DNA of 64,000 nucleotides from Euprymna scolopes. Lineage: Eukaryota. Positions 4,968 through 45,527 of the stretch are shown here, piece by piece; position 1 is the first letter of the stretch; each line of letters starts with the position of its first letter. The position numbers were made by a program, and so were the translations under genes. The stretch lies in the NCBI GenBank assembly GCA_053919585.1, contig CM132793.1. The stretch is one strand, 5' to 3'. Under the pieces are notes generated by a model, which saw nothing but the letters and a program-made list of their open reading frames with translations, was not told where the DNA came from and made no database searches.

Positions 4968-6326
4968 GGCACTTTTTACTGAGTGTGGACCCAAGCAAAA
5001 ATTTTTTTTTTGCTTAAGTACGCATGCGCGCAATCGTAAGTCTGCGGCCAAAAAAAAAGTCAAATACACATTGAACACATTGACCTCAACAGCGATTTTC
5101 TTTAGATGTACCAACAAGTTGAGATTTTTTTTTATCCAAAAAGTGAAAGAAATGTGAAATGAAATTTTTACAAGTCAAATTTTATTTTAAACAATATACC
5201 ACTGCGATATATGCAGCAACACATTGTCAAAAGCGTCTTTGCCACTTTTTCCTTAAACCTCCCTCCATAAAAATTCGTCCAAATGGGACTCCACTGTACT
5301 GGAGTGCACCCCCATCATTGTTTTGAATTTCGTTTTTGCGTTCTTCCAAAAACATTCCACCTTGTTGGTGTGCACGCCTGATACTGGATCGACGAAGTGT
5401 TGCGAATGGTTCACTTGTTTGTGGATGTACCTGGGGTGGAGATTTATCTGGTCAATTGGAGTATATGCTCTCCAACTGTCAGAATGTATGGTAGTTCCTG
5501 GTTTTATGTATTTTTTTATCAGTGGTATCAAGGTGTCGGAGGAGCGATCACTGACAAAAACCAAAAATCCGATTTTATCCTCTGTATCCCACCCACCGAA
5601 AACCCACCTTTGCTCTGGTACTCTACCGCGGTTATATTTCCGTTTACAGATCAAAGACTCATCAATTTGTACCACGTGGCCAGGTCCACCTATTTGGTAT
5701 GGGTTCATCACCATATGATGGCTTGTGGCGTCACGTAAATACTGGTACCATGAACAAATGGTCTTCCCGCTTACCTCGCACATGTCAGAGGCGACAACAC
5801 CAGTTATCTGTCTAGACCAGACATATGCAATTCGGATGAATTCTTGCAATGTTATTTTGGAGTCTTGCAAAAATGAACCCTTTTTTATCGATGCCTTCTG
5901 GTTCTTATGGGCTTTGCATCGGAAAACTTTAGTGTCGCGATTTTTGATAAGAGACATCTGCTGTTGACAAACACTGCATACCATTTTTTCTGCAAGGATT
6001 TTCCTCTCTTTGAGGAAAGTATCAGCGGAGTCAAAATCTTTCGTCCACTCAAAGAGTTGTGTGAGCATTTTTTGAAATGTGAAATAAACTTTTTAAAAGT
6101 TCCGAGAGATAAAATCGCTGTTGAGGTCAATGTGTTCAATGTGTATTTGACTTTTTTTTTGGCCGCAGACTTATTTGGCGAGTTCCGAGAGATAAAATCG
6201 CTGTTGAGGTCAATGTGTTCAATGTGTATTTGACTTTTTTTTTTGGCCGCAGACTTACGATTGCGCGCATGCGTACTTAAGCAAAAAAAAAAATTTTGCT
6301 TGGGTTCACACTCAGTAAAAAGTGCC
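4968..6326 (-). mobile_element. Merlin (ISXO2/IS1016-like) DNA transposon, near complete
   Basis: ~130-bp TIRs starting GGCACTTTTTACTGAG; 8-bp TSD CAATAAAT at 4960-4967 and 6327-6334; 271-aa ORF 5253-6068 with VQIDES, IHSDSW, VNHS, HTNKVE. Confidence 0.95.
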
Positions 6327-15555: not shown

Positions 15556-16026
15556 TGTAATTTCGATTTCATGTTCCTATTCCCAGTGATAGATCCAAGT
15601 GTACGGTGTAAATTTTTTGCCGTCCTTGATATCGTTGAGGATGTAGTCGTTCCATTCCATTTTTTCTTGGAGCTGAGTGGTCCCGGTCCAAAACTGACTT
15701 TCGCTCCCCCAGAATTTAAAGGAAGAGAAGAAAGGGGGGTTGTGGGGGTCTCCTCCACATTATTGCCAAATATTTCAAAGTTGTTGATCGTCGTGTTAAC
15801 TGGAGTCATTCAAATTTGGCTTTTTTCTGATAATTTTATATAAATATTTATTAAATATAGATTATTAAAGAAAAATTTACAATAAAGTATTTGTTGTATA
15901 TGTTGTAAGATACGATGTTGTAAGATACGAAACGACGGCTTAAATTAAATACATGAGATATTTCTTCCATTACATCCGGTCACGTGTCATATCTCAGTCC
16001 TGGTCGGCCATTTTGGGTACTCTCGT

Positions 16027-16952
16027 CTAGGTCGACTGCTCTGGTGTTATTATTCTTACGTCCCATCTATCTAATGAGAGTTTATTATAGTCTGGTCTAA
16101 AATTAGCCATGACGATAACATGTGGTTTCTCGAAACTTTTTGTGCAGCCCATGTATTTTGTAGATACTAGGTATCCATTTTTTATTCCCTCGAGTAGTCC
16201 GTAATTAACATATGTTTCCATTGATCTGGTATAATCAAATAAGACTATTTTTTCTCCGTTATATATGTACGCGATATCTGCCGTTTTTCCGTTCATTAAT
16301 ACTTTTGCTCCTTTGGAACGTAAGTATTCACAGAGGAATGTTTTCCCTTTGTTCCCCTCATCGTCATAATACCAGATAATTTTTCTATCATCTGGTTTTC
16401 TTTGCACTTCTTGAATGAGTCGAAATTGCCAAGGTTTCCATATTGTTTTTTCAAACATAGCGCTTATTTCTTTATCATTTTTTCATTTATTTTGTCTGCT
16501 ATTAAGACGTCTATGCCCGCCTTGTGTGTTGTATATACGCTTAACATGGATCTGTATCTAACATATCTCATTGGATTTTTGTATCCATTTTCGACGATCT
16601 CGTGTATTTTTTCTTCCACTTTACTCCCTCCTTTTTCGTCAGTGTTGCTAGATTCACATTCGCCCTCCTCGTGTATAATTTTTCCTTCTTTCGAACAGTA
16701 TCTTTTGTTTTCTCTTTCTGTTCCTCTCGCGATCTCCAGATGTGCCGTTGGTACCATCCGTTTTAGTTTTGAGAAGTACATTCTGTTATTGAATCGTACA
16801 TATCCTTGATAATGTATCCTTTGAGTAGTTGGACAAGTCTCTTCTCCTACTATCATGTAATTGATAGGGTTTCCACCGAATATGTTTTTCCAATCTCTTT
16901 CTTCTTCTCCCTCCTTGAAAATGGTAAAGCACCATCTTCTTGCGCGTTGCAT
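16027..16952 (-). pseudogene. rep: CRESS DNA virus Rep (nanovirus/alphasatellite-like), one frameshift
   Basis: RCR motifs WCFTIF, IHYQG, YCSK; SF3 motifs GNKGKT, VLFD, VMAN. Confidence 0.92.
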
Positions 16953-16974
16953 CGTAGCAATAAAATATTAAAGC

Positions 16975-17010
16975 GGACGTTCGCTTTAGTATTACCAAGC
17001 GAACTGTCCC
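16975..17010 (+). promoter_or_regulatory. CRESS virus rolling-circle origin stem-loop
   Basis: Nonanucleotide TAGTATTAC (16987-16995) between the stem arms GTTCGCTT and AAGCGAAC, about 35 nt from the rep start. Confidence 0.9.
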
Positions 17011-18125
17011 GTGTCCCGTTCTTCATACACATATATACATGTCATCAGCAGCAGCTTCTCTTTCTCTCTCTGACTTTGTCTCTCTCTTCTCCATTGTTGT
17101 GGATCGTCACGCGCTCTAGCAGGCAACGGAAGAGGAGGAAAAAAAAATAGTTTGCTCTTCAATTTCTCCTTTCTCTTTCCCCTCCTTTTTCTTTAAAAGT
17201 CTTATTTTTTTTTTTTCAAATTTTCAGTGTTCTTTCCTTTTTCTTCAACCGTGTGTTACTTCTTAAAGTGTCTTCTTTTTTCTTTTTTTTTGAGCTCACT
17301 GTACGGTTTTCTCTTCTTACTTAAAACTTATTTCCTTTCTTCATCCGTCACTATCTGTCTCCTATTATAAAATCTTTTTAAACCTACGTTAAGATAAAAA
17401 TTAAATTTCTACATGATCCTGGGAACTTCTCTATCAATTCTATCCACAACCTCCTTATACAGCTCCATACCCAATCACTATTCTGGGCAAGGTCCACGGC
17501 CTCGCTTAGCTTAACGGGGTTAGACTTCAACATGTCCGCCTGTATGTCTCGATCAAGAAGGGCTTCACCCAAGACGTCTGCCAGCAATGCCTGAATTGGT
17601 CCACCGTCTGGGACCGACTGGTCCAGAATGGCACATATGGCCAGTTATATTTGCTCGGCCAGAGTATCTATCTCCTCTTCGGTCCGCTTGCATGAGTTGC
17701 CAATGCCAAATAGACCACCAAGCCAGTAGAGATGAGACTGACATGCTCTGTTAACTTCATATGGCATGTCATAGCCAAGCATGACTTTTATCGCTATCTC
17801 AAAGTTGTTACCACCTCTGGATTGTGAGAGGCCAATACTCTCTGGTTGAGCCAGTTTATTTAGGGCTGGTTGATGTTTAAATTTTTCAATCATAAAGAAA
17901 AAATGTGATCATCTTTTTCACTTATTAAAATTGACATAAGATTAAGTATTTTCTGTTATATTTGTTGTCTGTGTTACAGGATCTACAAAGTTAGGCTGTG
18001 GTTCACCAGTAAATGGTGATATACCCTCTCCTCCCACTTTGCTGTAAGCCCACTAACAGTCTGATACGACTGTGGTCTGCGACAGAATGTATTTTCTTAT
18101 TAGTAGAAGGAGGGTTTCAGCATTC

Positions 18126-18800
18126 CTATTTGGTACGCTTTTCCTTACAATGATCCACATTCATGGACTGAGTTTTTTTGATACCCCAGTATTTTAGTTT
18201 GGGCATTGGATTTTTGAGTTTATGGTAATGCATTCGTGCTTTTAAATTTGGTTCTTCTCCAGGTATAGTCAACCACGGGTCTGTGTTTGACATGCTCAGG
18301 CAGAGTGTTCGTCTCATTAATCTTTCAGGATTATTCTTTACGTTCACATGCGTGGTTCCTCCTAATATGACTTTCGCCTGGTCGACTTTGTGTGAATAAA
18401 ATTGCATTTCGTCGGTGTAGATTAGTGCTCTGTCTACACAGTTCGTGAATGTGAAAGCGTCTTGGTCTCTGCATCGCATTTGTCCGTAGTTGACTATGCC
18501 CTCACGGATAGAACTGATTATGTTTCCCCTGCGTTTGCCGGTCCTTGTAGATAAAATGCATTTATTTTGGGTAACATTTTGTGGCAAACATCGAAGAGTT
18601 CTTTAGCTATCGTCTGTTGGTTTAATCTATGATGTTCGCACCAAACCTCATATATTCTGAGGCTCTCCTTCAGTGGCCAGTAGTAATTTCCTTCCAGGTT
18701 TCGGAAGTAATCAGTTTTGTTTTTGATTTCCATATCGGTATGTTGATTTCCTTTATGTTCACCTCTGTGAATACTTGTATTGTTGATGTGTTATATAGTG
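18126..18800 (-). pseudogene. Divergent parvovirus-like NS1 helicase fragment
   Basis: INAFYLQGPANAG, GQMRCRDQDAFTFTNCVDRALIYTDE. Confidence 0.85.
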
Positions 18801-19399
18801 GGGTGTCATAAAGGAGATTGTATCATAAAGGGAATAGTGTCAAGAAGGAGATTCGTGTACGTGATCGTCTAGTTTCTAATCTTATTGTTCATGTCTTCGT
18901 GGGTGTGTGTTTGTGTACATGCATTTCTTAACATACCTTTTCATTCATGTGTCGTCGGTTGTTCCTCTGGTGTTCATTGTCTCTTGGAGGGGAGCTGGCC
19001 TGTTGGATGAAGAATTCACTCCAAGATGATAATTAAGGTTTTATGTTTTTATTCACCTTCCAAAGGTCGACACAGAATGGAGGTGAACCTTGCTTGCTTG
19101 ATGGTACCGTCAGCGTCCTCCCCAGCCCAGGGGGGGGGGCAGCTGAAAAGCCGTCTGTCTTCTTCAACACCCGAAACCAAACTGCCAAGAAAGAATCAGC
19201 TAACCTCATCACATGACACCACGTCATCTGGTCAGCTGACCCTTCTTCTGCAAACGTGTCCACTGTCCACGTTATTCACCTCTCTCTCTTTCCCTCCCTC
19301 TCCCTCGCTCTATTCTCTAATAGAGACACAGAGAGAGAAAATAGAAAGAGTAAGAAAGCCAGAGAGGGGGGGAGAGATGCTCATTAACAGATGGACTGC

Positions 19400-20000
19400 G
19401 TGTTTTCTATGATGTATTGGAAGTCCCGTTGATATTGGGCTCCCGCTCCATCATAGAAGTGTACCAGGTCGGATATGTCTTGTCCTGGACAGTGCTCTAA
19501 CTGTATCTATATTCTTTAGTCCGCTTGTTTGTGGTCGTCTGGTTATTGTATGTTGGTTGTCGTTTAAAATGTCGAACCACATTTTTTGTGCCTCGGTGGT
19601 AATGTTATTAATTGAAACTAATTGTTTTCCTGCGTTTGCTTGTGGGATCCTGCATATCCGTATGGGGTTTTTGCACTTTCTGCTTTCGTATAAGTGGCGA
19701 TCGCGTCATGATCACCTGCTTCCATTAGTCCTTTTTTCAATTCTTTGAAGGCGTAAAGTTCGGACGGGTGTCTATCATGGAAGCTTACTATATGGAAATG
19801 TTGTCGTCCTTGTATCTTTTGGCATCAGCTGTCGTATATGATTATACATGGGTGCCCGTTTAGTATGTTCATTAGATGTTTATTATTACTGTCGGGATGT
19901 TCACATCTTAGTACTTCGCTTGGTTTTAATTCGAGGTTTGGGAAGTCCCAATGATATTCGTTTTCGTAACGAAACCTGTATACCCAGTTGTATTCTTTCA
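19400..20000 (-). pseudogene. Degraded NS1 N-terminal (HUH endonuclease) fragment
   Basis: Manual translation of about 19745-19805 gives HFHIVSFHDRHPSELYAFKEL, matching HFHVISWHFEHPTSEYGF. Confidence 0.7.
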
Positions 20001-20199
20001 AGCTGGTCTGTTGCAGTGCTGTCTGATCTGTGTTAAATTGTTGGTACTTGGGCTCTTAGCTTTGGTCATCAATTCGGAATGTTGTTAGTCTGGTTGTCAT
20101 TTTGGTTGACGTGGAGTCTCTGCCGTGTTGAATGTTCTGGTGTCCGTTGGTTTTTTGTCTGTTTATATGTGTATGTCCTTTGTTTGACGTCAGTGTTGG

Positions 20200-20780
20200 A
20201 CAGGTTAAGTGCCACATTACCTGTCTGTTTATCCGTTGATGTATAGTGAAGTCGTCTGATCTAGCATTATTCCTGCGTCCTTCTGAAAGTTGGATGTGGT
20301 TGCGTGCACTCGACGTTTAACATTTGTCCCGGTTAAGTGCCCGTTCGGTTGTGTTAGTAAGTTAATTGGCATCCTTTCGTTCTTCATTGTCATCGTTTAA
20401 GTGCTGTGTTTTGTTTGCGGATGGTCAAATTGTTCGTACAGTAAGTGGACGTCCATTTCATAAGTGATGTTGAATGTGAAGAAGTTTGGCCTTGAACCTT
20501 CGGCTTCTGTTACCATCGGTGCGTGTACTTACTAATGGCCTGTATTGTAGACTTTTATTTTTCCATTCGAAGTTATATAAGTCTCTTTGCCTTAGTTCGT
20601 GAAAATTTGGACTCCTCCACATTCGTCTCCAGTCCTGAAGTTCTTTTGCGTCTAAACTGAAGTCTTCTTTTCCGGGCGAAATGTCTTTTTCAAAGATGTC
20701 CTTTGCTAATCCCGCTGGCATCCAATATCGGTTGGTAGTTTTACGGCCTCGTATTCTACAGGTTTGCATTCTACCCAGTT
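20200..20780 (-). pseudogene. Divergent VP fragment
   Basis: QDWRRM...LRQRDLYNFEWKNKSLQYRPL aligns with HDWREM...LRQGDSFTHVWRNHSLLRRPL. Confidence 0.7.
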
Positions 20781-21191
20781 TCTATTTGGTATATGTGAAA
20801 TATCTAATAAATTCCCGAAGCCGACAAATTTTCCGTAGTCTTCGTATAAATAAAACTTTGGTGATGGAATATATCTTTTCTCTCCTTTGCTGTCTGATGG
20901 CCAAAGTTAACCATCTTGCCTGATGTATAGACCCAATTTTCCAAGCAGCAAATTTAGGATCAAGTTTTCCTCTAGAAATGCCAAGTGCATATTCAAATAA
21001 GTCTCTGGTCAGAGGTTAGTTTACTTATTTCCTCAGCCGTAAAACAAATATTTAGAGGACAACCAACTGGTGTAAATATTTTTTTTTTTTTTTATTCAGG
21101 AAAATTATGTAACATTTCCAATAGCAATAATCTTATATGTTTATTAATATTATTACATAAAGCAGTGGCTGAGTCCAATTTTTGTTTCAGT

Positions 21192-22103
21192 TTATCTATC
21201 GCTGTTGTCATTGTTGTCGTCATCGAAGCGCAGACGTTTGATAGCAGAACCAGTCCATCTACATCGTCCATCTGATCCGTTTCGTTTTGTTGGTGCGGTA
21301 GGTTGAGTAAGTGTTGTAGATTCTCCTTTCTTTAGTGTAGATGTTGTAGTTTTCTCATATTCATCTAAAAAAGATGAGATAGCAATATCCGAATCAGAGG
21401 AAGTATCTTCCGACAGGACATACTCCTCAAACAATGAATTCCACAGAGCCGGATTAAGAGGTTTCTTTGCTTTAGCCAAGAAATCACTAGCTATGATAAA
21501 GTGGTACTTAATGTATCTAGATTTAAATGCCTGTCTTTCAATGTACTGTGCGTGTTGATCAAATTCATGATTACTTTTAATGATTAAAGGTATGCTTTTT
21601 ATCGTCTGATCTGCTCCGTATTTAATGCTTACCTCTGTATCAACCCCCTCCGCTATGTTTTTGAATGTTTGGAGAGTTTCCATTGTCATATTTGGCTCCT
21701 CAATTAGACCTACCTCAACATTAACCAAACTCATGGAAGGAAAACTTGCTGTACTTTGTACAGTAGCTGAATGTTGAAACAGATCTACTACTGATTGAGC
21801 GATGGTAGATTTACCACTATCAGGTACACCCTGTAATACTAACAGGATTTTCTTTGGAAACTTTTGATTTAAAATATTCCAAACATCATTAACGAATTTG
21901 GATATATCAATATTTTGTTTTCTTAACAATAATCTGAATAACCTAAGAGAAATATCTGATAGATATGAAGTATTGTTTAAATATAGGTTCCAATCTTTTT
22001 TGTTGTATTTGTCTATGAAAGATTGGTTTATGAGTTTAATTCTATCACAATCAATAACTTTTTTTATTATTGTATTGTACTGTGGATGAGAGATAGCCCT
22101 CAT
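21192..22103 (-). CDS. SF3 helicase domain of a distantly related parvovirus-like NS1 (5' truncated)
   Basis: GVPDSGKS (A), LIEE (B), KNIAEG...VSIKY (B'), IIKSN (C). Confidence 0.8.
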   Translation of the reverse strand: MRAISHPQYNTIIKKVIDCDRIKLINQSFIDKYNKKDWNLYLNNTSYLSDISLRLFRLLLRKQNIDISKFVNDVWNILNQKFPKKILLVLQGVPDSGKSTIAQSVVDLFQHSATVQSTASFPSMSLVNVEVGLIEEPNMTMETLQTFKNIAEGVDTEVSIKYGADQTIKSIPLIIKSNHEFDQHAQYIERQAFKSRYIKYHFIIASDFLAKAKKPLNPALWNSLFEEYVLSEDTSSDSDIAISSFLDEYEKTTTSTLKKGESTTLTQPTAPTKRNGSDGRCRWTGSAIKRLRFDDDNNDNSDR

Positions 22104-22446
22104 AAAATTATTATTGGGATTATGTGAACGGCCTATCCAATCACCTTTCGGTACTTTTGCACTTAGCGAACCAGACGTAACTCAGAAATCGCTCGGATTT
22201 GTCCGGCGCATGATGTCAACAGCCGGATAAAACCGAGCGTTGCCGATTAAATAAAAACAATGCTACAACAAAATAACTGTACAATGAAATTGTAAAATGT
22301 AGAAACATAAATTTAAATAAATAAAAAGCAAAAACCTACCGTTCATTTATGTTTTTTTATTAATAATTTAATTTTTTTTTTTTTTTTTTTTTTTTTTAAT
22401 TGTTTTCTGTTATCAAAAAAAAATAAATAAATAAGTTTTTTTAATT

Positions 22447-22915
22447 ATAAAAAAATCTCTATGTAGGGTGCCCCCCTCCACCATTAAACGTTTAATGGTG
22501 GAGGGGGGCACCCTACATAGAGATTTTTTTATTTTCTCTGACAGGTTTTGAATAAAATAGAATACGGGAGAATTGGACTTATCTAAGTTGCCACTTAGTG
22601 CCATGCTCTAATACCTTACCTTATAGAGTTTATAGAAATATAACGCGCGCGCGTAGAAAAACTTTCATTCATCTAATGTCTGGTGGTTCTGAAAAATAAT
22701 TTCATGCATCTCATGTCATGCGTCATGCAGAAGGAAAAATATTAAAATACAAACACATGTATGGTATTATATATATATTTATTATACTATAATATTGCAA
22801 TTACAATAATAATTCCAATAATAGTAATAATAATAGAAAGGACAGACATTAGATAGGAAAAAGTTTTTTGGCGGCCATGACACCTTAGACTTAGACCATA
22901 GATGGATTTCTTTTT
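22447..22915. repeat. Viral NS-end terminal module type A with 86-bp perfect palindrome
   Basis: Palindrome 22447-22532 with axis at 22489/22490; the module recurs at 36949, 45084 and 50927, always directly after an NS1-A-type 3' end. Confidence 0.85.
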
Positions 22916-23022
22916 TATCAGTCAGAGTCTGTCAGTAATTCCTCGCAGTACATTACCAATGTCTGCAAGGATTTTGTTTGTTTGTGCGTTATGTGTATGC
23001 GTGTGCAGTTCTCTGTCCCGTA

Positions 23023-24888
23023 TTAGTGTGAACTCGTTGATGTTTTTTTTTTTTTGTTTTTTTCGGCGCTGTTTTCTTTGTCGTCGTCGCTGTCAGTTAT
23101 TATGATTAAGTCTGTACTGTCTGTGTCTGGTGGCGCCGACGGCGAATTACTATTTGTCATCATTTCCTCTAAGTCGGAGTCCGTAAACGGTACTGTCATG
23201 TCGGAGTCGTTTGGTGGCGTCGGACAGTTTATGGGATGTCCGTGTGTCAGACATACCTGGGCTGGCTGGTTTGGATCTAATTCGCACTGTTCGTTCATTT
23301 CAGGCAGTAAGTTGCGCCGTACGTCTCGTACCCGTAGTTTTTTCGAAGGACTGTGTTCGTCCTCCTCCTTCCACGTGTACCTGCTTGGTTTTGGTTGTGC
23401 GGTCAATTTTCCTGCCTTCGGGATGTAACCGTCTCGCTGGTAATCCGTGATGTGTTTGCGCCATATTGTCAGCCACATCAGCGGGTTGAGTTCTAAAGTT
23501 CCCCATCCCTTTAGGTCGTCCATCGCCGTTCGGGTTGTAAACAGGAACATCCTGTTGATCATGGCCTGCTTTTCGTTGGCCACGTGTCGCCATGGTTCGT
23601 CGTTGCTGGTGGACAAGCAGGGCGTGCGTTTTAGGATTCGCTCGCTCTGGTGTTTCACGTTCACGTAGGTGTCCGTTCCCTCCAGGATGCACTTGGCTTC
23701 CTCGACGTTCTGTGGCGTGAACCACATTTCCTCCGTGAATATGAGACTCTTGTCTACGCAGCTGCCGAAAGTGAAGTTGTCACTCGCCTGGCATCTCATT
23801 CTTTCTGCGTTCATCAGACCGTTTCTGATGCTGCGAAGGATGTAAGATTTTCCCGAATTCGATGGTCCGGTGATGTGTAGTGCGTTTTTCTTTGGACGTA
23901 TCTTGTGGCAAACCTCGAACGTCCCTGTTGCGAACTCGTCGGCGTCGATCTGGTGGTACTCCAGCCATTCGTCGTAGATGTCTAGCGACTTTTGTACCGG
24001 CCAGTATTGGTGAGTCATAGCCGAGAACAGCTCGTGTTTTTCTCGAATCTGTTCGTGGATAGGCGTGACTCGGCTTTGTATTTGGACGTCTGTAGCTGCA
24101 GCGGCGATGATGTTCGATAGGTTTGCCGTGTTTTTATGTATGCTCGTCCAGGTCTGTCTCGTCGATGGTTTTGCTGTCCTAGCGCAGTAGATCATCAAGT
24201 CTCCGACGTCCGTGGAATTGGCCTTTTTCATGATCTTTGTGAGAAAGTCGTATTTCTGACCTCTCAGGCTGTCGGATTTGTTAGCAAGGCGCGATTCCTC
24301 GAGTTCCGGACTTGGTTCCCTGATGGTTTTCTCCGTTAATTGACGTAGCATAGCCAGTTGTCTTTCTGTGGTCAGGTTCCCTGCCGATAGCACCGTTCTG
24401 ATGGTCGGATCTGTCGTTAAGTAAGTGCAAAGCCCGTATGGACTGTATACCTTTGGACAAGTCATGGTATACGGCTGTTCCCCACGGTCCTGCAGCGTCC
24501 TCTTTAATCGGCTGAATCCGTATTCGCTGGTCGGATGCTCGAAATGCCAACTAATGACGTGAAAGTGGTCCACATCCGAGCAGTTCTTTAGTCGGCTTGG
24601 TCTGGCCTTGTGATACACCACAATGTTCGGACGTTGGTCGAGCAGGTTCGCCAGCAGTGAGTTTTCTCGATCGGTTTCGTCGAAGGTGCAAGCCTTTCGG
24701 AAGGGCGGTATGTGTTGTTGTTCTGGCTTTACGTCAAATGAGTTGGTCCGTCGCCATCTGTACACCCAAGTGTATGGTGTTAGTTTGCGTCCGGCGTGGG
24801 TGTCGGAGAGGATGTAGTCGTTGAAGCGGGCCTTCTCCTCGTGTTGTGTCGCTGCCTCCATCATCGCTGTCTGAGGATCCGTTCCCAT
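23023..24888 (-). CDS. NS1: Parvovirus-like NS1 (HUH endonuclease plus SF3 helicase), open 621-aa ORF
   Basis: DHFHVISW (HUH), YGLCTYL, GPSNSGKS, LIFTEE, STSN; TATAAAT upstream. Confidence 0.92.
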   Translation of the reverse strand: MGTDPQTAMMEAATQHEEKARFNDYILSDTHAGRKLTPYTWVYRWRRTNSFDVKPEQQHIPPFRKACTFDETDRENSLLANLLDQRPNIVVYHKARPSRLKNCSDVDHFHVISWHFEHPTSEYGFSRLKRTLQDRGEQPYTMTCPKVYSPYGLCTYLTTDPTIRTVLSAGNLTTERQLAMLRQLTEKTIREPSPELEESRLANKSDSLRGQKYDFLTKIMKKANSTDVGDLMIYCARTAKPSTRQTWTSIHKNTANLSNIIAAAATDVQIQSRVTPIHEQIREKHELFSAMTHQYWPVQKSLDIYDEWLEYHQIDADEFATGTFEVCHKIRPKKNALHITGPSNSGKSYILRSIRNGLMNAERMRCQASDNFTFGSCVDKSLIFTEEMWFTPQNVEEAKCILEGTDTYVNVKHQSERILKRTPCLSTSNDEPWRHVANEKQAMINRMFLFTTRTAMDDLKGWGTLELNPLMWLTIWRKHITDYQRDGYIPKAGKLTAQPKPSRYTWKEEDEHSPSKKLRVRDVRRNLLPEMNEQCELDPNQPAQVCLTHGHPINCPTPPNDSDMTVPFTDSDLEEMMTNSNSPSAPPDTDSTDLIIITDSDDDKENSAEKNKKKKTSTSSH

Positions 24889-28100: not shown

Positions 28101-28256
28101 AGGTACTATTTCTTCTCTGGTGGACAGAAATCTCATAAACATCTGTTTTTCCTCGACCAAGTGTCTGCTTGAACCCCCCCCCCCAACCATACCTCATCCT
28201 CTCCCATCTTCATCTAGCTGTTTAGGATACCTGGCACTGCCTGGGATCCCGTTACA
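25100..28256 (-). mobile_element. Ty3/Gypsy LTR retrotransposon remnant: 5' LTR, PBS, deleted gag-pol
   Basis: LTR 27060-28256 bounded by TGTAAC...GTTACA; TGGTGCCG PBS next to it; RT/RNaseH motifs KYLGF, GYYRRFV, YTDAS, TDHKPL. Confidence 0.88.
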
Positions 28257-29650
28257 AAATGAAATAATGACAGATGACGTTTTAAAATGATTGTATTTTA
28301 TTTTATCATTTAAAAATAACATTGAACAATATGTTGGTTTGTATTCGAAAACAAATAATGAAAGATGAAATTAACTATTGATTAAACGTCTTTAAAATGT
28401 GTTTTATTTTATGATTTAATTATTTAATTTTATATTTGAAAACATTGAACAATACAAATAAGATTTTGGTTTGATATTACATTTTATATTTTACTGTAAA
28501 TATTGTTCTCAGATATGATGATACGCAGAAACGCTTCTTCCTTGTTCCTGCGTCTTCACAAGAATTCTATCATATGCATCCCAAAATTACTTTTTGATGC
28601 CACCCTCCCAAGTTTATTCTTGAAATGTGCCCATAAACCTTCTATGGTTTGTGTGTGTGTCATTGGATCTTGTGGATCCACAAAGTTTTCTTTGTGGATC
28701 ACATCATTATCATATACGCCATGATCGAAATGATCAAAGCCTTGATATGCTGCAAAGCCGTCTGAAATTATTTGTGCATCGGGACGAATCCACGTTTTAA
28801 TTATTGGGAATAGTGTGTCCCGATCCCGACTATCAACCGCTGTTAAGTTCGAACCACGTTCGACAGCTCCAAAGACCCATCTGCCGTTCTTCATTCTTCC
28901 CTTGTGTTTTCTTTTTAAAAAAAATAGAATTCGTCCACTTCGACTACTTTGGGTTTTTTGTAGTTTACTCAATGCCACCTAGCATGATGGGATGATTTAG
29001 CAGATCTTCCTCACACACTTCTCGGACGAAATGCATCCAATCCACCACTGCATATGTGCCTGCACCCAATTCCTTCTTTATAACTGTTTGTGCTGCCTCG
29101 ATGCTCCAACAGAATAATAAAATAAGAATGTTTTTTATTCTTAAGTGTCTTTTTTCAAAAAAAGATCCTTTCCTAATAGAACAGGACGATTTTCAATACT
29201 TACATCTCCAGATGGAACCACTTCTTAACTTGTATAATTTTTGCAATTTTGTGCAATCATTGCAATAACTGCTATTTATTATTAGCCCGAAACGGGCTGC
29301 TATTTCGATCTCCTCAGTAATCAAATATATGACAAATTCCATTTGATTTTTTAATTTCTTGAATTGTAAAAACGTGATTAATGATGGTTGTTTTGCTGCT
29401 AATATCCATTTTCCAAAATTAAAAATAAAGTGACCACACGTGGGTAATTTAAATTTAAATTAAATTTTAATTTTAATCACATTAAATTTTCAATAATCAT
29501 GTGATTAAATTAAAGACGTTTAATCAATAGTTAACTTCATCTTTCATTATTCCTTTTCGAGAACAAACCAACATATTGTGCAATGTTATTTTTAAATGAT
29601 GAAATAAAACACAATCATTTTAAAACGTCATCTGTCATTATTTCATTTTA
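28257..29650 (-). mobile_element. Merlin transposon remnant with long inverted repeats
   Basis: 28257-28400 is the inverted repeat of about 29505-29650; WVFGAVER, IISDG, HTQTIEG. Confidence 0.82.
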
Positions 29651-29738
29651 TTTGTTAAACAACGTCGTTAATTTGAATTATATCTTAATCACAGGATTAC
29701 GCTTTCATTTTCACTAATCACGTAAATATAAACAACTT

Positions 29739-32264
29739 GGTATTCCGGCATAAAGCTCGAGACAATAGTCTCTAACCCCCTTTCACAACAAAAGGAACTA
29801 ACTTCCCTATACACCGCTTTTGGTTACTATGGGAACAGCTAATTTTTGTGATGATTCGATTTTTAATAATAAACACATTTTATTATTTTAAATATTAATA
29901 TTTATTTTTAATAATAAACACATTTTATTTTAAATATTAATATTTATTCTTAATAATAAACACATTTTATTTTATTTTAAACAATATACAGGACATTTTA
30001 AAAGTAAAACAATATTTGTTTAATAGTAATAATTTGGAGTATGCTGAAAACGAATATCATTTAAATTTGTCCGAAAAAAGTAGTTTCCGGGATATTAATC
30101 AATGTAGTTCTTTATGTTATAAGTGGTGGGCATTCCTATACACGCAAGAACGAGCATGTTTTTGACGCCCACCCCCCACCACCACTGATAACATGAAGAA
30201 CTATATTGATTAATATCCCAAAAACTACTTTTTTGTGACAAATTTAAATGCGCTTGCTTACATGTATAGAAATGGCCACCACCGATAACAAAGAATTACA
30301 TTGCTTAATATCTGAAGAACTCGTTTGCGGCAAAAATATGCGCGCTCACGCGTACAGAAATGGTCACCATTGATAGCATAAGCCATTACATGTATATATA
30401 TTTCAATGTCCTCGTGTCTTTATTGAAAGATGAAATAAAAAAAGACGAACGTTTTAGTCAAAACAGGAAAAAAATGCCCCCCCCTCCATCACTAGGTGGC
30501 CAGAAAGTGGGTGCTCATTTTACGTTAAATTTATATAGAAAAGTGGTACCCGACTTTTTGAAAAAGTAATTTCTTCATATCATAAAAACTATTCATTTCT
30601 GGCGGAAACGGTTAGCACATTCGTGTTTAGCACGACGAAATCTACAAGAAAAATATATTTTTTTTCTTCTAGTGTGAGACGGGTCTTAAAGTAAAATTTT
30701 ACCGTTTTTTTTTTATTTTTTTTTATTTTCCAAATTATGAAAAAAATGTAATAAATTGCAAAATTAAATAAAATTTAAACGGCATAATAATGTCGAATCC
30801 AGTACATCATGTTATAAAGAAATTGCGTGTAACTTTTCGACGCGGGTAGCTGCTAAAGTTGGCCGAGCTAGTACCTCTCATGGCTCTAAGTTTTACCTTA
30901 CTAGTGCTCCAGGCCCCTTCAATTGTATTTGTGTGGACTGTCGGATCATTCGGATCCACAAAAGTATATTTGTGTTCTAGCACAAAGTGGTTAGGAAGGG
31001 CATTATACGCTCGCCAACGATCCGTTATTATGCGTGTTCCAGGTAAAACATACTGTTGAATGATTGGCAACAGAGTTCCCGCATCTCTAGATTCTACTAG
31101 TACCATCATTGTTAGGTTTGTTCTACGTTCAACCATACCCAGAACTCATTGTCCTTGTCTGTATCGGCCACGGTGATATTTTCTATGCATATATTTGCTT
31201 TCATCGATTTCAACTGTCTGATCTGAAGAGGGTTATCAATGAGGCAAATAACACAAATTTCGCAAAGGAAATTATACTAGTCTTGGAGACTACGTGGGCA
31301 AACATGTCTGTTTTGTCACTTGTATTTGCGGTTCCTCTATCGACCACCAATAAATTACCTCTAGTATTTGATTAAGTGTTAAGTGAGCATGGTTGAAGAA
31401 GGAGCCAGCACGCACAGTTTTCGTTTTTTTACATTTGGGACAAGCCCAACAGTAGCCATCTCTCCTTTGCAAAAACATCCGACATTGATGCGATGATGCG
31501 TACACTTATTGCAAATGCTTTGATTTGTGATTAGCCCATGTTTCGCTAACCATTCGAGCGTTTTCATTCTGTTATTTATTTGTAACAGGATGTCTTTGAG
31601 AGAATATTCCAAAAAACACAGGTCAGCTGCAGTTATAACATCATCAACAATTTTCTCCATGAGTGCAGCAGAACGCGTACGATTTTTCGATTAATTGGCA
31701 GCAAGGATACTAATAATTTGTGCGGGTTTTCAGATCGAATAATAATTTAAAAAAAAAATCAACAATAATAATAATAAAAAAAAATCAACAATAATAATAA
31801 TAATAAAAAAAAATCAACAATAAAAAAAAAAAATCAACAATTATAAAAAAAAAATAGATTTTATTGGTTTATTCCTCGAATGACAAAAATAATAAATGTG
31901 ATTATATTGTTTATACTTTTAAAATAAATCCTGTATATTGTAGGCTATAATAAATGTTTGAAGCCAAATCTTTCAGCAAAAAAGGCCAAATTTAAAGACA
32001 AAACCACATTTTTTAGATAAAAAAAGGCCAAAAAAGTCAAATTTTAACTTTTTCTTTAATAATTACTATTAAACAAATATTGTTTTAGTTTTAAAATGTC
32101 CTATATATTGTTTAAAATAATAAAATGTGTTTATTATTAAAAATCGAATCATCACAAAAATTAACTGTTCCCATAGTAACCAAAAGCGGTGTATAGGGAA
32201 GTTAGTTCCTTTTCTTGTGAAAGGGGGTTAGAGACTATTGTCTCGAGCTTTATGCCGGAATACC
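29739..32264 (-). mobile_element. Merlin transposon (degraded transposase, >140-bp TIRs)
   Basis: TIR GGTATTCCGGCATAAAGC... at both ends; IITDRWRAY and VHTNTIEG; no clean TSD. Confidence 0.82.
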
Positions 32265-32269
32265 AACAT

Positions 32270-33245
32270 GTCCTTTTTTTTTGGATAACAGTTACAGGCT
32301 ATTCGTACAACTAAATGGCAAATCTGCCGAAAAAGCTTTCATCGATTTCCACATCTATTGGGATGCCTTATTCGGTAATACCTCCAAGTTGCTGAGGGTT
32401 TTCCGCAGGTACTACTCACAAATTTCCCGTAAGAAATTGCACCAGTCCACGATTGTGTTTTTGCTGACATCAAGTTCCCAAGGCGTAATGTCCTGGGAAT
32501 ACTCCATTGCCCACATATATATTATTTGTGTAACTTCCACTGAAAAATGAATTTTCCTTCAGACATCTGGTAAATTTGTCTTTCCTGCATATCCACCTAT
32601 ATTCATCGAGTCCTTGCATGTATTTGACCAGTTTGTAAGGATTGTGGCAAATTTCAGTCATTTTTATTTTTTGCAAGTCATCTCATAATTGAAAAGTTAT
32701 CCCTGTGAGGATCCAGCAGTCTAATTGTCTCATTAGACACAAATTCTGCATCCAGAATTTCTGTGTCCTCATTCACAATTGATGAAGGGTTTTTGGTCGA
32801 CCAACAAAAACCATTTTTCCGCAGATTTTAAGTATTTAAAGTTTCGTCAAATTGAAAGAAAAAGGTAAAATAAGTTTCGGTGAAAAGCGTAATATTAATG
32901 TACATTGAAGGAAAAAAAACAAATCTTGTTTAATAATTTTTTCGTTTGTTTGATTATATTTTAAATAAAGGGAAAATTCCACCCCACCCCCTCCCAAAAA
33001 AGAAAGGGCAGGTCACTCTCAAGGAAAATAAATGGACCAATCAGATTAAAGGATGACTTTATGAAGAAGACAAGCGGACATTTTTATTTTCAATTTAGAT
33101 GATGGCGATATAAAGTAAACAAAATCACCGGCTTCAGTATTTTGTTCTATGCTTACAATGGTTAATTTTTTAAACAAAAAATAATTCGTTTGGCAATAGT
33201 GCCCATCCTCAAAAAATTCCCTGGAATTTGTAACGCTAAACTTAG
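32270..33245 (-). mobile_element. Merlin-like 5' remnant; related terminal sequence inverted at about 13787-13926
   Basis: IVDWCNFLREIC and VEIDES readable on the minus strand; 33100-33240 resembles the reverse complement of 13790-13926. Confidence 0.65.
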
Positions 33246-33851: not shown

Positions 33852-34570
33852 CCATTAAGCGTTTAATGGTAGAAAGGCTTAGACTTTTCTTTGGAGGGGG
33901 GGGTCGGCGTGTGTCTGGTTGAGAATAAAATAGGGCGGACGTTGGAAATCTAAGCCTTACCTTATAAATTTCACAATTTTCACTTTTTTAAACTTTTTCT
34001 TGTTAATATCATCCAATAGAGACTTATGTAATTAGAAAAATACTTTTTAAAATCATTTTATGACTTTTCACGGCTTGTTCAGTTTTCTATTATAACGTTG
34101 TAGTAAATTAAGCACGAACTTAAGTTCCACGCGCAAGCCACCGGAAGTTGGCCTTATTTTCTTTCTTTTTTCTTTTCACTATGAATAACCAGAGGTAACT
34201 TGGCGTTTGCTCGGAATGTGTTTCTTTTATTAAATTGTTAGGTGATGGTGAAAAATAGTTAACCTCCACCCTCCCCATGTTAAATAATAGTTTTCTAAAT
34301 AATTGTGATTTCACCATAACAACAAAGACCAAATTTTACAATAATACAGGGTTTAATTGAAAAATATATTTTTAATCAGCTTTCTTTGAAGAAATTCCAC
34401 GAATTTAAAAGTAAATATATTTAGAACATTTAAAATTAAAAAAAAAAAAAATATATAAATTCCCCCCAAAATCACTTACCTATAAAAAAGAATGAATTAA
34501 TGGGTAGTTCCATTCTTCTGAAAAAAATTTCAGTCGTAAAATTCAATTTGTAGCTAACGAAGAATATGAA
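33852..34570. repeat. Third, divergent terminal module (type D)
   Basis: CCATTAAGC|GTTTAATGG followed by GAATAAAATAG and CCTTACCTTATA, as in types A and B; right boundary uncertain. Confidence 0.65.
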
Positions 34571-35532: not shown

Positions 35533-36948
35533 ACTGCGTTGGTTTCATGCTGTATGTGTTTATATATTACTAAGTAGGTCAACATCTGTGACTATTGCGT
35601 CATGTCTATTTATAGATGTGATAATATTTTATTTATACCTAATGTCTGGTTTCTAGTAATGGCACTATTACTTTTACATTGATCGATCTAATGTATGGAG
35701 TGCAACGACTACACGACACTACCAGTGAAAAAGAAAATACAATACCAGACTGGTAGTGTTGTGTAGTCGTTGCACTCCATACATTAGATCGAACAATGTA
35801 AAAGTAAAAGTGCCATTACTAGAAACATTAGATCGATCCATGTAAAAGTAATAGTGCCACATTAGGGGATTTAATTCCAGTGTTCCCCATTCTTGTAGGT
35901 CGTCCATTGCTGTTCTGGTTGTGAAGAGGAACATTCGGTTTATCATTGCCTGTTTTTCGTTTGCTACGTGATGCATGGAGTTCGTTTTAGTATTCGCTCA
36001 CTCTGGTGCTTGACATTTACGTAGGTGTCAGTGCCCTCAAGGATACACTTTGCCTCCTCTACGTTCTGTGGCGTAAACCACAGCTCCTCCATAAATATCA
36101 AGCTCTTGTCGACGCAGCTTCCGAAGGTGAAGTTGTCGCTTGCCTGACAGCGCATGCGACCTGCGTTCATTAAACCGTTTCTTATGCTTCGTAGTATATA
36201 TGATTTCCCCGAGTTAGACGGCCCCGTGATGTGTAGCGCGTTTTTTTTTTTCTGACGTATTTTGTGACATACCTCGAACGTACTAGTAGCGAACTCGTCG
36301 GCATCAATGTGGTGATAAGTCAGCCATTCGTCGTATATGTCCAGGGATTTCTGGACGGGCCAGTATTGATGCGTCATGGCTGAGAATAGCTCGTGTTTTT
36401 CACATATCTGTTCATGGATTGGTGTCACGTTTAATGGTGGGGTGTGTGGCGTAGTTCATATTTTTAAAAAAATCTCTTATAAGGTTTAGAATAAAATAGA
36501 ATACGTGAGAATTGGGCTGATAGCTGGCCGTATTGGTGCCTACATTACTTCCTCCTTACCTTATATGATTGAATCCTTTTTGATTGCGTGTGTGCCTAAA
36601 ACTTTGATTCATCCCAGGTCAGGTGTCATGGCCGCCGAAAAAGTTTCTTTCCTCTCAGGTCAGGTCTTCTTCTGAAAATAACTATTACATGCTTGTACCA
36701 TGCTTATACATGCAAATATCATGCCATACATGCGATCGAAATTCCAATATATATAATACATACTCCAATATAATATTTAATATAGTTTATTATAGTAATG
36801 AATCGTACAATAGAAAAGATAGTTTTTAATTTGTTAGTATACAATGTGTGTGTGTGTGTGTTAGTAGTAATAGTAGGTCGCACCAGACCTTAGAGTGTAG
36901 AAAGTTTTTGTCCGCCATCTTGCCAGACCTTAGATACTTAAATTAACA
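35455..36948. repeat. Module M1 (VP 5' end, promoter, hairpin H1, NS1 fragment, terminal module B)
   Basis: Near-identical copies at 43571-45083, 49463-50926 and 57556-59068. Confidence 0.93.
35649..35826. repeat. Terminal hairpin H1 (78-bp arms, 22-nt loop); copies at 43763, 49629, 57748
   Basis: Arms 35649-35726 and 35749-35826 are reverse complements with few mismatches; lies upstream of VP. Confidence 0.92.
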
Positions 36949-37389
36949 TAAACGTTTAATGGTGGAGGGGGGGCACTCTACATAGAGATTTTTTTATTTT
37001 CTCTGACAGGTTTTGAATAAAATAGAATACGGGAGAATTGGACTTATCTAAGTTGCCACTTAGTGCCATGCTCTAATACCTTACCTTATAGAGTTTATAG
37101 AAATATAATGCGCGCGCGTAGAAAAACTTTCATTCATCTAATGTCTGGTGGTTCTGAAAAATAATTTCATGCATCTCATGTCATGCAGAAGGAAAAATAT
37201 TAAAATACAAACACATGTATGGTATTATATATATATATGTTTATTATACAATAATATTGCAATTACAATAATAATTCCAATAATAATAGTAATAATAATA
37301 ATACAAAGAACAGACATTAGATAGGAAAAAGTTTTTTGGCGGCCATGACACCTTAGACTTAGACCATAGATTAATTTCTTTTTTATCAG

Positions 37390-39140: not shown

Positions 39141-39224
39141 AGTTACATCAGTGTCAGTGCGGTTTAGAAAATATTTACAAAAGTCTATGTGATCATTGAT
39201 AAGTGTCATTGATAGAATACTTTA

Positions 39225-41208
39225 TCAATCGGAGTCACTGAGCACTTCTTCACATTCTAAAAATAGCTGTGACGTCGGCCCTCGTCCGTTGATTTGTCGT
39301 TGGTATATTGCTAATGTGTAGTTTATTATGTTTTTTTTTTTTTGTTTTTTTTGGTGTGACGAAGTCGTCCTCCTCCGGTTCTTCTGTTTCTGAGTCGCTG
39401 AGCACTATTACTCCGGAGATTGGCGAGTCCTCTATTACTGTGTCTTGAGACATGGTGGGTGCTGAGGGGCTGGGTTGGTTTGTTGCTGTAGGACATCTGT
39501 GTGCCTTGCAACCGTGGGTTTTACAGTACTGCGTCGGCTGGTTTTCGTCAATTTCACATGCCTCAGTCATCCAGTCCTCGACGTCGGAATCGTCTGAGAT
39601 ACGCAGGTTTTGTACCTCCTCTCCTCCCATGAGTTCTTTGAACAGTTGTCTTCGTGCCTTCATGTAACCCGCCTGTTTGTCTGGTGACAGGCCCTCTACT
39701 GCTTGGACAGTGAAGTTGGTCGATGCTGCTGGTTCCTCGATGTCTTCTTCCTCCTGGAATTGGTACGTCTGGTTCGTGTAGTCCATCACGTACTGTCTCC
39801 AGACGGTCAGCCACATTGTCGGATTGAGTTCTCGGACTCCCCATCCCTTTAGGGCAGGCATGGGCCTCTTCGTCTCGTAGAGGAACATTCGGTTGTGCAT
39901 TGCTGTTCTTTCCTGCGGGACGTGTCTCCAGGGGTCGTCGTTACTTGTAGACAGGCATGGTGTCCTCTCTAAGTATCGTTCCGCCTGGTGCTTCACGTTT
40001 ACCGCTGTTGTGGTACCTTCCAGGATGCACTTTCCCTCCTCTACATTTTGTGGTGTGAACCACATTTCGTCCGTGTAGATCAGTGTCTTGTCCACACAGG
40101 AGCCGAACGTGAAGTTGTCCGAAGCCTGACACCGCATTCGACCGCAGTTCATGAGCCCGTTTCTGATTGACCGTAACACGTAAGACTTGCCTGAGTTACT
40201 TGGTCCTGTTATGTGGAACCCGTTCTTTTTGGCCCATATCATGTGACATACTTCGAATAAGTTTCTTCCGAATTCTACCGGGTCAAAGTTGTGGTGTTGG
40301 GCCCAAACGTTGTATATGTCCAATGACTTTTGCACAGACCAATACCGGTTCCCGTCCATGCTGAAGAGGTCCTTCTTTTGCCGGATCTGTTCGAATATGG
40401 GTGTGACCTTTGTTTGGATTTGTAGGTCGCTTGCCGCTGCCTGCATGATCGGTTGAATGTTTTGGGTATTGGTAAATATGTGTTCCCATGTGTCACAGAC
40501 CTTTGCATTTGTGGATTGTTTACAGTAGAGCATGACTTTTGCCATGTCAGTACTGTTACATTTTCTCATTATATCGAGAATGAATTTATATTTTTGCCCT
40601 CTCAGGGTAGATTTTCCAGTGAGTCCTGTGTCTACCGCGGGTTCGTCCTGTTTCTTTAAGGGCTTGTCGCATATTTTTCTGTAGGTCGCTAGTTGACCGG
40701 GAGTTTCTAGGTGCCCTGCTGCTACTACTGTACGTTTTGACGGGTCCTGTGTTAGGTAACTGCAGAGCCCGTACGGGTTGTAAATTTTCTGGCATGAGAT
40801 TTGGTAGGGGTTTATCTGTCACTCGCCCTGGAGTTTTTTCATTTGCACGTAACTGTGCTCGCATGTCGGGTGGTTGTGGTGCCATGTTATCATGTGGAAG
40901 TGGTCCACGTCTGCGCAATGTTTCAAACTGCTTGGCCCTGCTACGTGGTATACTATTATGTATGGGCGCTGGTCTAGAATTCTGGCCAAGTACCCGTGGG
41001 TAGCGTTCGATGGCTGTAACGTTAGCGCCTCTTGGTAAGGTTTGGTCTCTGTCGTCCCCGGCTTAAGGCTGAACTCCTTTTCGGTTTCCCAGCGGTAGAT
41101 CCATGTGTACGGTCGGATTTGTTTGCCGTTTACAGTTTCTCCGTTGACTAAGGTATTGAAATGTTGTTGTTCTTCTCTTTGGTTGCTGGCGCTGGTCGTG
41201 GCTTCCAT
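39225..41208 (-). pseudogene. NS1: NS1 lineage B, full length with a frameshift near 40830
   Basis: DHFHMITW, GPSNSGKS, LIYTDE; ORF pieces 40819-41208 and 39250-40569. Confidence 0.9.
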
Positions 41209-41440
41209 CCTGAATGTCTGGAGCGTGTGCCTGATCGGTGGTTTATGTGCGTCTTTTATAGCAAGTATCTGCGTCGTAAGAATTAGAATCTGTTGCCGGT
41301 TTTGTAATTATCTCTGGTAGTAATTGAATTATGCTGACGTTGATGAATTTCGAAAATAGCTAATTGATTTTAGCTGACGCCTCGGAATTTAAAAAAGTAT
41401 ATATTTTGCTTACCGAGCGTTTAGTGTCTGTAGCTCCACC

Positions 41441-43288: not shown

Positions 43289-43304
43289 TGTGGTTATATA
43301 TGTT

Positions 43305-43360
43305 GTAATTGCGTCATTTCTATTTATAGATTACGATTATTGCGTCATTATGACGTCATC
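43305..43360 (-). promoter_or_regulatory. VP promoter: TATA/MEF2-like CTATAAATAG with TGACGCAAT and TGACGTCA sites
   Basis: ATCTATAAATAGA.ATGACGCAAT is conserved between lineage B and lineage A/A' (35594-35617). Confidence 0.6.
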
Positions 43361-43384
43361 ATTAGTGAAAATATTATATTAGTC

Positions 43385-43573
43385 GCAGCAATGAAGTAGT
43401 GGCACTACCCAAATTATTTAGCAGTCACAGGTCTGACGTGCAAACCTCTCGTAATTTCATCAGTCACTGATGAATACGATACAATAATCCGTGACTGATG
43501 AAATTACGAGAGGTTTGCACGTCAGACCTGTGACTGCTAAATAATTTGGGTAGTGCCACTACTTCATTGCTGC
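43385..43573. repeat. Terminal hairpin H2 of virus B (83-bp arms, 23-nt loop); copy at 57370-57558
   Basis: Arms 43385-43467 and 43491-43573 are reverse complements. Confidence 0.93.
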
Positions 43574-45083
43574 CCGGTCTGAGGAAGTCGTACCCTGGTA
43601 CAGTGAATTCTAACTTGGTCCGACGTCGCTTTCGCGGTGGAGGCATACTGCGTTGGTTTCATGCTGTATGTGTTTATATATTACTAAGTAGGTCAACATC
43701 TGTGACTATTGCGTCATGTCTATTTATAGATGTGATAATATTTTATTTATACCTAATATCTGGTTTCTAGTAATGGCACTATTACTTTTACATTGATCGA
43801 TCTAATGTATGGAGTGCAACGACTACACGACACTACCAGTGAAAAAGAAAATACAATACCAGACTGGTAGTGTTGTGTAGTCGTTGCACTCCATACATTA
43901 GATCGAACAATGTAAAAGTAAAAGTGCCATTACTAGAAACATTAGATCGATCCATGTAAAAGTAATAGTGCCACATTAGGGGATTTAATTCCAGTGTTCC
44001 CCATTCTTGTAGGTCGTCCATTGCTGTTCTGGTTGTGAAGAGGAACATTCGGTTTATCATTGCCTGTTTTTCGTTTGCTACGTGATGCCACGGCTTGTCG
44101 TTGCTCGTGGACAGGCATGGAGTTCGTTTTAGTATTCGCTCACTCTGGTGCTTGACATTTACGTAGGTGTCAGTGCCCTCAAGGATACACTTTGCCTCCT
44201 CTACGTTCTGTGGCGTAAACCACAGCTCCTCCATAAATATCAAGCTCTTGTCGACGCAGCTTCCGAAGGTGAAGTTGTCGCTTGCCTGACAGCGCATGCG
44301 ACCTGCATTCATTAAACCGTTTCTTATGCTTCGTAGTATATATGATTTCCCCGAGTTAGACGGCCCCGTGATGTGTAGCGCGGTTTTTTTTTTTCTGACG
44401 TATTTTGTGACATACCTCGAACGTACTAGTAGCGAACTCGTCGGCATCAATGTGGTGATAAGTCAGCCATTCGTCGTATATGTCCAGGGATTTCTGGACG
44501 GGCCAGTATTGATGCGTCATGGCTGAGAATAGCTCGTGTTTTTCACATATCTGTTCATGGATTGGTGTCACGTTTAATGGTGGGGTGTGTGGCGTAGTTC
44601 ATATTTTTTTAAAAATCTCTTATAAGGTTTAGAATAAAATAGAATACGTGAGAATTGGGCTGATAGCTGGCCGTATTGGTGCCTACATTACTTCCTCCTT
44701 ACCTTATATGATTGAATCCTTTTTGATTGCGTGTGTGCCTAAAACTTTGATTCATCCCAGGTCAGGTGTCATGGCCGCCGAAAAAGTTTCTTTCCTCTCA
44801 GGTCAGGTCTTCTTCTGAAAATAACTATTACATGCTTGTACCATGCTTATACATGCAAATATCATGCCATACATGCGATCGAAATTCCAATATATATAAT
44901 ACATACTCCAATATAATATTTAATATAGTTTATTATAGTAATGAATCGTACAATAGAAAAGATAGTTTTTAATTCGTTAGTATACAATGTGTGTGTTAGT
45001 AGTAATAGTAGGTCGCACCAGACCTTAGAGTGTAGAAAGTTTTTGTCCGCCATCTTGCCAGACCTTAGATACTTAAATTAACA
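43571..45083. repeat. Module M2
   Basis: Copy of M1 that lacks the 28-bp deletion. Confidence 0.92.
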
Positions 45084-45527
45084 TAAACGTTTAATGGTGG
45101 AGGGGGGGCACCCTACATAGAGATTTTTTTATTTTCTCTGACAGGTTTTGAATAAAATAGAATACGGGAGAATTGGACTTATCTAAGTTGCCACTTAGTG
45201 CCATGCTCTAATACCTTACCTTATAGAGTTTATAGAAATATAATGCGCGCGCGCGTAGAAAAACTTTCATTCATCTAATGTCTGGTGGTTCTGAAAAATA
45301 ATTTCATGCATCTCATGTCATGCAGAAGGAAAAATATTAAAATACAAACACATGTATGGTATTATATATATATATATATGTTTATTATACAATAATATTG
45401 CAATTACAATAATAATTCCAATAATAATAGTAATAATAATACAAAGAACAGACATTAGATAGGAAAAAGTTTTTTGGCGGCCATGACACCTTAGACTTAG
45501 ACCATAGATTAATTTCTTTTTTATCAG

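Follow-up and report, generated by a model that had tools for sequence, protein, structure and literature searches.

The window analysed here is a stretch of 64,000 nucleotides from contig CM132793.1 of Euprymna scolopes, and on sequence grounds it is a cluster of endogenous parvovirus-like fragments lying among transposon pieces (Table 1). All of the viral tblastn matches (103/103) are found on the minus strand, together with every Tc1, Merlin/IS1595-like, gypsy and Bel/Pao-like frame that has Pfam support, a bias that, by analogy, resembles a uni-strand piRNA cluster. A piRNA-like role has been proposed for the scrambled IHHNV clusters of shrimp (PMC9357335). The IHHNV clusters of Penaeus monodon are similar to the present one in being made of jumbled parvoviral fragments, which the same paper calls piRNA-like, whereas here at least six divergent NS1 lineages (pairwise identity 24-96%) lie on one strand and telomeres have been kept. 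According to self-alignment, the region from 34.6 to 59.1 kb is made of 98-99% duplicates; it forms a tandem array (34582-59069) of 98-99% identical units of 6, 8 and 14 kb with homopolymer-length noise, and represents either a recent duplication or an assembly expansion. Also present are three elements of the Merlin/IS1595-like kind (4968-6326, 28256-29649 and 29732-32271), all with long terminal inverted repeats; the third contains a degenerate 190-bp inverted repeat (30058-30250). Additionally, a piece of an endogenous CRESS-DNA virus is located at 15960-17040, with Rep in two frames (PF02407, E 4.1e-19) and an adjoining stem-loop (~16975-17010) that carries the nonamer TAGTATTAC in its loop.

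The viral genes encode an NS1 and a capsid protein (VP). Four NS1 frames match Parvo_NS1 (PF01057, SF3 helicase) with E values from 7.9e-19 to 3.9e-16, and the NS1 profile matches AAV Rep structures (E 5.5e-16). In the Atlas, the top match of NS1 is an NS1 cluster (0.98) and VP matches VP1 clusters (0.96). An HxH motif, as would fit an N-terminal HUH nuclease domain, is present in all three NS1s, in a region where the Atlas neighbours carry Rep_N and no Pfam match was obtained; the AlphaFold model of NS1 is of low confidence (pLDDT 40). VP frames carry the PLA2 domain (PF08398, E 6.3e-10 and 4.3e-7), and in a search for the parvoviral jelly-roll fold, with a VP model of low confidence (AlphaFold, pLDDT 38.8), Foldseek returned parvovirus capsids in 49 of 49 cases among the matches listed (best E 9.1e-7, TM ~0.25). 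For NS1, 42 relatives were found, two of which are genome proteins of the cuttlefish Acanthosepion pharaonis (48-53% identity over ~28% of the query) and 40 of which come from contigs; for VP there were eight, the longest contigs among the latter being 4,409 and 4,470 nt.

Table 1. Location of the endogenous parvovirus-like features in the window
Feature	Position	Strand	Remarks
Putative hairpin-telomere tip of virus A, copy A2	22447-22532	.	Mirrored arm 22447-22489
Downstream non-coding region, type 1	22490-23022	-	First 232 nt: 3 differences from copy A1
NS1 of A2	23023-24888	-	Open 621-aa frame; SF3 helicase PF01057, E 7.9e-19
Capsid gene of A2, last codons	25060-25098	-	Precedes NS1; truncated against a gypsy-type fragment
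Third, divergent terminus (type 3)	33852-33966	-	Axis 33860/33861; 9-nt flank with one mismatch; abuts a VP fragment
Type-2 terminus (virus D), duplicate copy	36429-36948	-	Also 44572-45083 and 50411-50926; axis joined to an NS1 fragment, microhomology
Tip of virus A (A1 lineage)	36949-36963	-	Mirrored addition of 5 nt; junction repeated at 45084 and 50927
Virus B	39141-43573	-	Stem-loop 43385-43573, VP 41441-43288, NS1 in two frames 39250-41307; duplicate ~53127-57558
Longest contiguous copy	45084-49806	-	Tip, non-coding region, NS1 45528-47501, VP 47659-49512, stem-loop
Upstream stem-loop	49629-49806	-	~78-bp arms, ~22-nt centre; copies 35649-35826, 43763-43940, 57748-57925
Virus D	58556-62435	-	C-terminal portion of VP, 61215-62435; two-frame NS1, 59475-61044; tip 58555/58556

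Gene order and upstream stem-loops

Overlapping copies were used to assemble a genome plan, B giving the stem-loop, VP and NS1, and A2 together with D giving VP, NS1, the non-coding region and the tip; the plan consists of a stem-loop, VP, NS1, ~500 nt and a loop-less hairpin, with a total of ~4.7 kb. The downstream end of virus B has been lost, and virus D retains its native type-2 non-coding region beside the tip. VP precedes NS1 on one coding strand in viruses A, B and D, whose NS1s are 51-66% identical. The VP-NS1 spacers of the three viruses (170-232 nt) contain a TATA box and a shared 8-mer, and no hairpin remnant was detected in them (z from -0.9 to +1.1, against mononucleotide shuffles only). 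A head-to-tail concatemer as an artefactual source of the capsid-first order was rejected on account of these spacers, which in A, B and D have promoter motifs and lack a hairpin; the order is therefore taken as native and is well supported.

The longest contiguous copy probably arose by recombination between two close relatives at a point near the start of VP, because no mismatches to the 35.4-kb copy occur beyond 35482. A homology-guided insertion is suggested by the in-register join, near 35457/49437, of two related VP genes. Two older and more divergent viral relics are present at 18126-20900, where VP lies upstream of NS1 too, and at 21192-22181, where NS1 is only 24-28% identical to the others.

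Long stem-loops are located upstream of the capsid gene in two viruses, at 49629-49806 (z -15.8) and 43385-43573 (z -24.8), and share one motif of 8 bases in the loop and another of 13 bases in the arm. Foreign or duplicated sequence begins at the outer-arm end of both. The upstream loops of the window are all in one orientation (6/6), these six being duplicates of only two insertions. At the base of each loop there is a small internal palindrome (35720-35755 and 43455-43490), on opposite sides in the two viruses, which allows an alternative tip-plus-bulge fold. Additionally, a 33-nt piece right after 35826 (35827-35860 and its duplicates) carries inner-arm variants at both diagnostic positions and would fit either a template switch or inversion of the hairpin (flop). 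The upstream loop may bear a likeness to a densovirus nick site. Nick-site data are absent from PMC3738899.

The downstream palindrome and its junctions

A loop-less terminal palindrome had been claimed for this locus in an earlier note and it is real: 22447-22532 is a perfect palindrome of 86 bp with exact 43-bp arms and no loop, its axis lying between 22489 and 22490, 533 nt beyond the stop of A2 NS1 (at 23023). The runner-up loop-less arm, among the 92 palindromes of the window with arms of at least 5 bp, measures 9 bp. Folding of the palindrome gives z = -14.1, with none of 200 shuffles equally stable, and no match to a structured RNA was found in Rfam at the gathering score. The palindrome is the downstream terminus of an endogenous parvovirus-like element and, by analogy, appears to behave like the right-end hairpin of a heterotelomeric parvovirus, with a junction signature that has precedent. 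The right-end hairpin of HBoV1 is described as a perfect palindrome of 200 nt (PMC8242256), and the hairpins of HBoV and MVC as almost identical over their final 42 nt (PMC5244319). The HBoV1 type thus resembles the present virus in its perfect downstream palindrome, its different other end and a tip common to relatives (PMC8242256, PMC5244319). On the other hand, here it is NS1 and not VP that adjoins the palindromic end, the hairpin at the upstream end has a long stem and a centre of 15-23 nt and lacks a Y shape, and the capsid sequence is not alignable beyond the PLA2 region.

Ten exact matches to the 10-mer at the axis occur in the window (nine on the plus strand, one being the mirror) against 0.30 expected, a number reached in 0 of 100 shuffles; with one mismatch, the 12 matches are not above chance (8.05 expected). 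The nine plus-strand sites reduce to four independent junctions because the 98-99% duplications repeat the rest, 44572, 50411 and 58556 being repeats of 36429, and 45089 and 50932 of 36954. According to the self-alignment of the window, the independent junctions are those at 22447, 33852, 36427 and 36949, with mirrored flanks of 43 nt (exact), 8 of 9 nt, 2 nt and 5 nt respectively. A flank like that of 9 nt (8 matching) would be given by 28 of 127,982 window positions (2.2e-4) and one of 5 nt by 203 of 127,990 (1.6e-3), whereas one of 2 nt, given by 7,914 of 127,996 (0.06), is not unlikely by chance; the flanks of 43, 9 and 5 nt are more than chance gives. The 2 nt at 36427-8 align with the homologue of the adjoining NS1 fragment and are therefore microhomology, with no demonstrable addition. 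The positions and flank lengths given previously for four axis junctions are thus correct, except that the shortest flank belongs to native NS1 sequence. A mirrored addition appears to be present at three of the four junctions, the fourth lying at the axis by way of microhomology, and the 9-nt flank at 33852 could in part be the own sequence of the adjoining VP fragment.

A fifth downstream end, that of virus B at ~39140, breaks ~110 nt past the NS1 stop and far from any axis, and therefore four of the five recognisable downstream ends reach the axis. If breaks were uniform along the mirror arm, three of four ends within 9 nt would have p = 0.039 for an arm of 43 and p = 0.0036 for an arm of 100, values that depend on a post hoc threshold of 9 nt, on four junctions of which one is uninformative, and on a sample selected for copies that retain the tip. 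The joined partners of all three short-flank junctions are other viral fragments on the same strand. A circular genome is disfavoured since four downstream and two upstream ends stop inside or at the end of their mirror arms. From a circle one would also expect mirrored flanks that continue into unique sequence common to the copies, and no flank does so.

The three types of terminus are identical in bases 1-10 from the axis, whereas bases 11-50 match at only 9-14 of 40 positions. An 11-mer is common to them at +61, +61 and +63 from the axis, types 1 and 2 are collinear from the axis to NS1, and in type 3 the shared motifs stand at +63 and +95. Virus D, the NS1 of which is 65% identical to that of A, has the type-2 module at 58556 as its native downstream region. 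Between two strains of A (A2 and A1) the terminal 232 nt show three differences, as compared with 143 of 1829 in the NS1 region. The fixed position, the invariant tip and the low divergence between strains thus mark the axis as a fixed and constrained end of viral sequence. The conserved 10-base tip is probably a cis element, acting as an NS1 contact or as a 3'-end processing signal. A conserved 12-mer is also found 95-126 nt from the axis (22614, 33955 and 58681) and reads on the coding strand as a TATA-box-like and then a splice-donor-like sequence pointing at the tip. Furthermore, a candidate NS1-binding repeat, a motif of 11 bases, is found several times over in the two terminal regions (30 matches against 1.6 expected, duplicates counted; 22673, 22842, 35639-35787, 36883-36933, 59004-59054, 4898 and duplicates).

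Origin of the axis junctions

The reading we prefer, with a probability of about 0.6, is that the downstream terminal hairpin of a linear parvovirus-like ssDNA virus was closed, was opened off-centre by host repair and was joined. That a closed tip had been opened off-centre was already the proposal of the earlier note and is still the best single explanation; what that note left unnamed is the cause, a parvovirus-like terminal hairpin. Judging from parvovirus biology, the downstream end would often be covalently closed in the duplex replicative form during rolling-hairpin replication, a putative host hairpin-opening nuclease would cut at a distance of a few bases from the tip, and joining of the ends, in part through microhomology, would leave three junctions with 0-9 mirrored bases. 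In the 43-nt copy the break would lie at a greater distance, on the other arm or strand; this copy fits either a long native arm or a break in the closed duplex. Tip opening may precede or follow insertion, and the window fits both.

Rolling-hairpin replication is described as passing through a covalently closed duplex (PMC11575299), with Rep nicking coming after it (PMC3918229, PMC11575299). Artemis with DNA-PKcs cleaves the hairpins of AAV ITRs (work cited in PMC11575299), and 69.4% of AAV junctions are reported within the 19-bp ITR hairpin loop (PMC3918229). The AAV system is similar in that breakpoints cluster at the hairpin loop and a host nuclease opens viral hairpins, although the present case is an invertebrate germline fossil with a simple loop-less tip and the AAV ITR is T-shaped. 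Two observations that the earlier note had named as contrary to its reading, target-site duplications and a module found apart from viral genes, were not encountered: no target-site duplication is apparent at the junction flanks, and every occurrence of the module in the window is amid viral genes.

The leading alternative, which we consider unlikely, is that the full extended palindrome was inserted and that chromosomal cruciform extrusion later produced hairpin-capped centre breaks, the outer arm being deleted or duplicated away. The locus is rearranged and duplicated, and the junction 36948/36949 interrupts a D terminus that is intact at 58556-59200. Human palindrome-mediated translocations are described as always breaking at the centre, with the involvement of Artemis and ligase IV, and PATRR rearrangements likewise have centre breaks through hairpin-capped ends (PMC4940405), although PATRRs are host AT-rich repeats of 200-600 bp and this palindrome is viral and GC-balanced. 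Spacer-less palindromes are reported as the least stable of all (PMC7999016), which would explain the survival of whole large-loop upstream hairpins. Breakage after insertion has, however, to account for the loss of a whole outer arm with the viral side untrimmed in three of three short cases, whereas the translocation junctions reviewed in PMC4940405 carry small central deletions.

Lower in probability stands an origin from cDNA, in which viral RNA cleaved at or near the hairpin tip would have been copied by a retrotransposon reverse transcriptase with template jumps. Read on the coding strand, each of the three types has an ATTAAA hexamer immediately ahead of the axis, the tips of bocaviruses are conserved and can serve as polyadenylation sites (PMC5244319), and the viral tblastn matches are all on one strand; this last point loses force because DNA transposon fragments show the same bias, which needs another cause anyway. 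A poly(A) tract is absent at four of four junctions, mixed AT-rich sequence following the 43-nt copy, and insertion also included the upstream hairpins, located ahead of the VP TATA box, which points to DNA. The viral, same-strand partners of the short flanks would also fit rearrangement within the locus or cDNA template jumping. Centre breakage and cDNA ends give similar junctions and cannot be separated at four cases.

It is improbable that the viral NS1 itself cuts at or beside the conserved tip, as a resolvase-like enzyme at a very short telomere. The exact invariance of ten axis-adjacent bases in three divergent termini would agree with such cutting, and AAV Rep is reported to bind the ITR hairpin loop while nicking (PMC3918229); nevertheless, the break positions vary (0-2, +5, +9 and +43), unlike a fixed nick, the flanks have no common target sequence, and conservation of a tip without a role in cutting has precedent (PMC5244319).

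Finally, a protelomerase target, a transposon end or a fold-back artefact of sequencing or assembly is very improbable. The assembly does have homopolymer noise and near-identical tandem copies, but an artefact would not put the axis at homologous positions in three viruses. A transposon end or MITE was rejected, also one of the hairpin-intermediate kind (hAT, RAG footprints), as no TIR pair or TSD is apparent and the module is collinear with the viral NS1 in A and D. The likeness to a protelomerase core noted earlier proved coincidental: the palindromic axis and six bases are shared with phage N15 telRL, but the common hexamer is out of register by 2 bp per half-site and only 8 of 28 positions are identical in register, which rejects a protelomerase target. 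No enzyme was found in the window, where N15 TelN gave no tblastn match (E<=10) and the protelomerase Pfam family was absent from the 116 frames scanned (outside the duplicated block, every one of the 107 frames with 75 aa or more; within it, 9 of 82); no phage match was found.

Relation to known parvoviruses

The length of ~4.7 kb from tip to stem-loop and the hairpins at both ends, taken from the overlapping copies A, B and D, agree with the ~4-6 kb plan of the Parvoviridae. In parvoviruses the NS cassette is on the left and the VP cassette on the right (PMC11357303, PMC6631224), and this arrangement is not found in A, B or D; the virus is not counted as an ordinary member of the Parvoviridae because its gene order differs in this way. 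No description of a capsid-first parvovirus was found in the literature covered, which is largely that outside subscription journals, and none of cephalopod parvoviral EVEs was found there. The nearest oddity is a megaparvovirus with a PLA2 ORF upstream of NS1 and VP downstream (PMC13426907).

A more far-reaching proposal, which we hold to be doubtful, is that of a capsid-first virus packaging its coding strand, in which a very short 3' hairpin would prime, NS1 itself would recognise and resolve the invariant 10-bp tip, and nicking would take place in the large loop of the hairpin opposite. Such a scheme would explain the downstream ends as opened tips (3/4) and both upstream hairpins as whole. 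If true, it would break two family rules as worded in PMC11357303, namely that NS lies on the left and that there is no predominantly plus-strand packaging.

Closed parvovirus ends and their opening by host nucleases have already been described, and the hairpin-opening mechanism of the earlier note is consequently not new in kind. The newer point is the virus itself, with its capsid gene before NS1, both ends preserved and a different, large-loop hairpin opposite the tip. Parvovirus sequences from metagenomes or endogenous copies usually lack the hairpin ends, and a locus that retains both of them for several relatives therefore gives the replication origins of an undescribed lineage. Hairpin processing has so far been studied mainly with AAV in mammalian cells; the junctions would be a germline record of such processing during endogenisation. 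The capsid-first order, if confirmed in free virus, would widen the known genome plans of parvoviruses.
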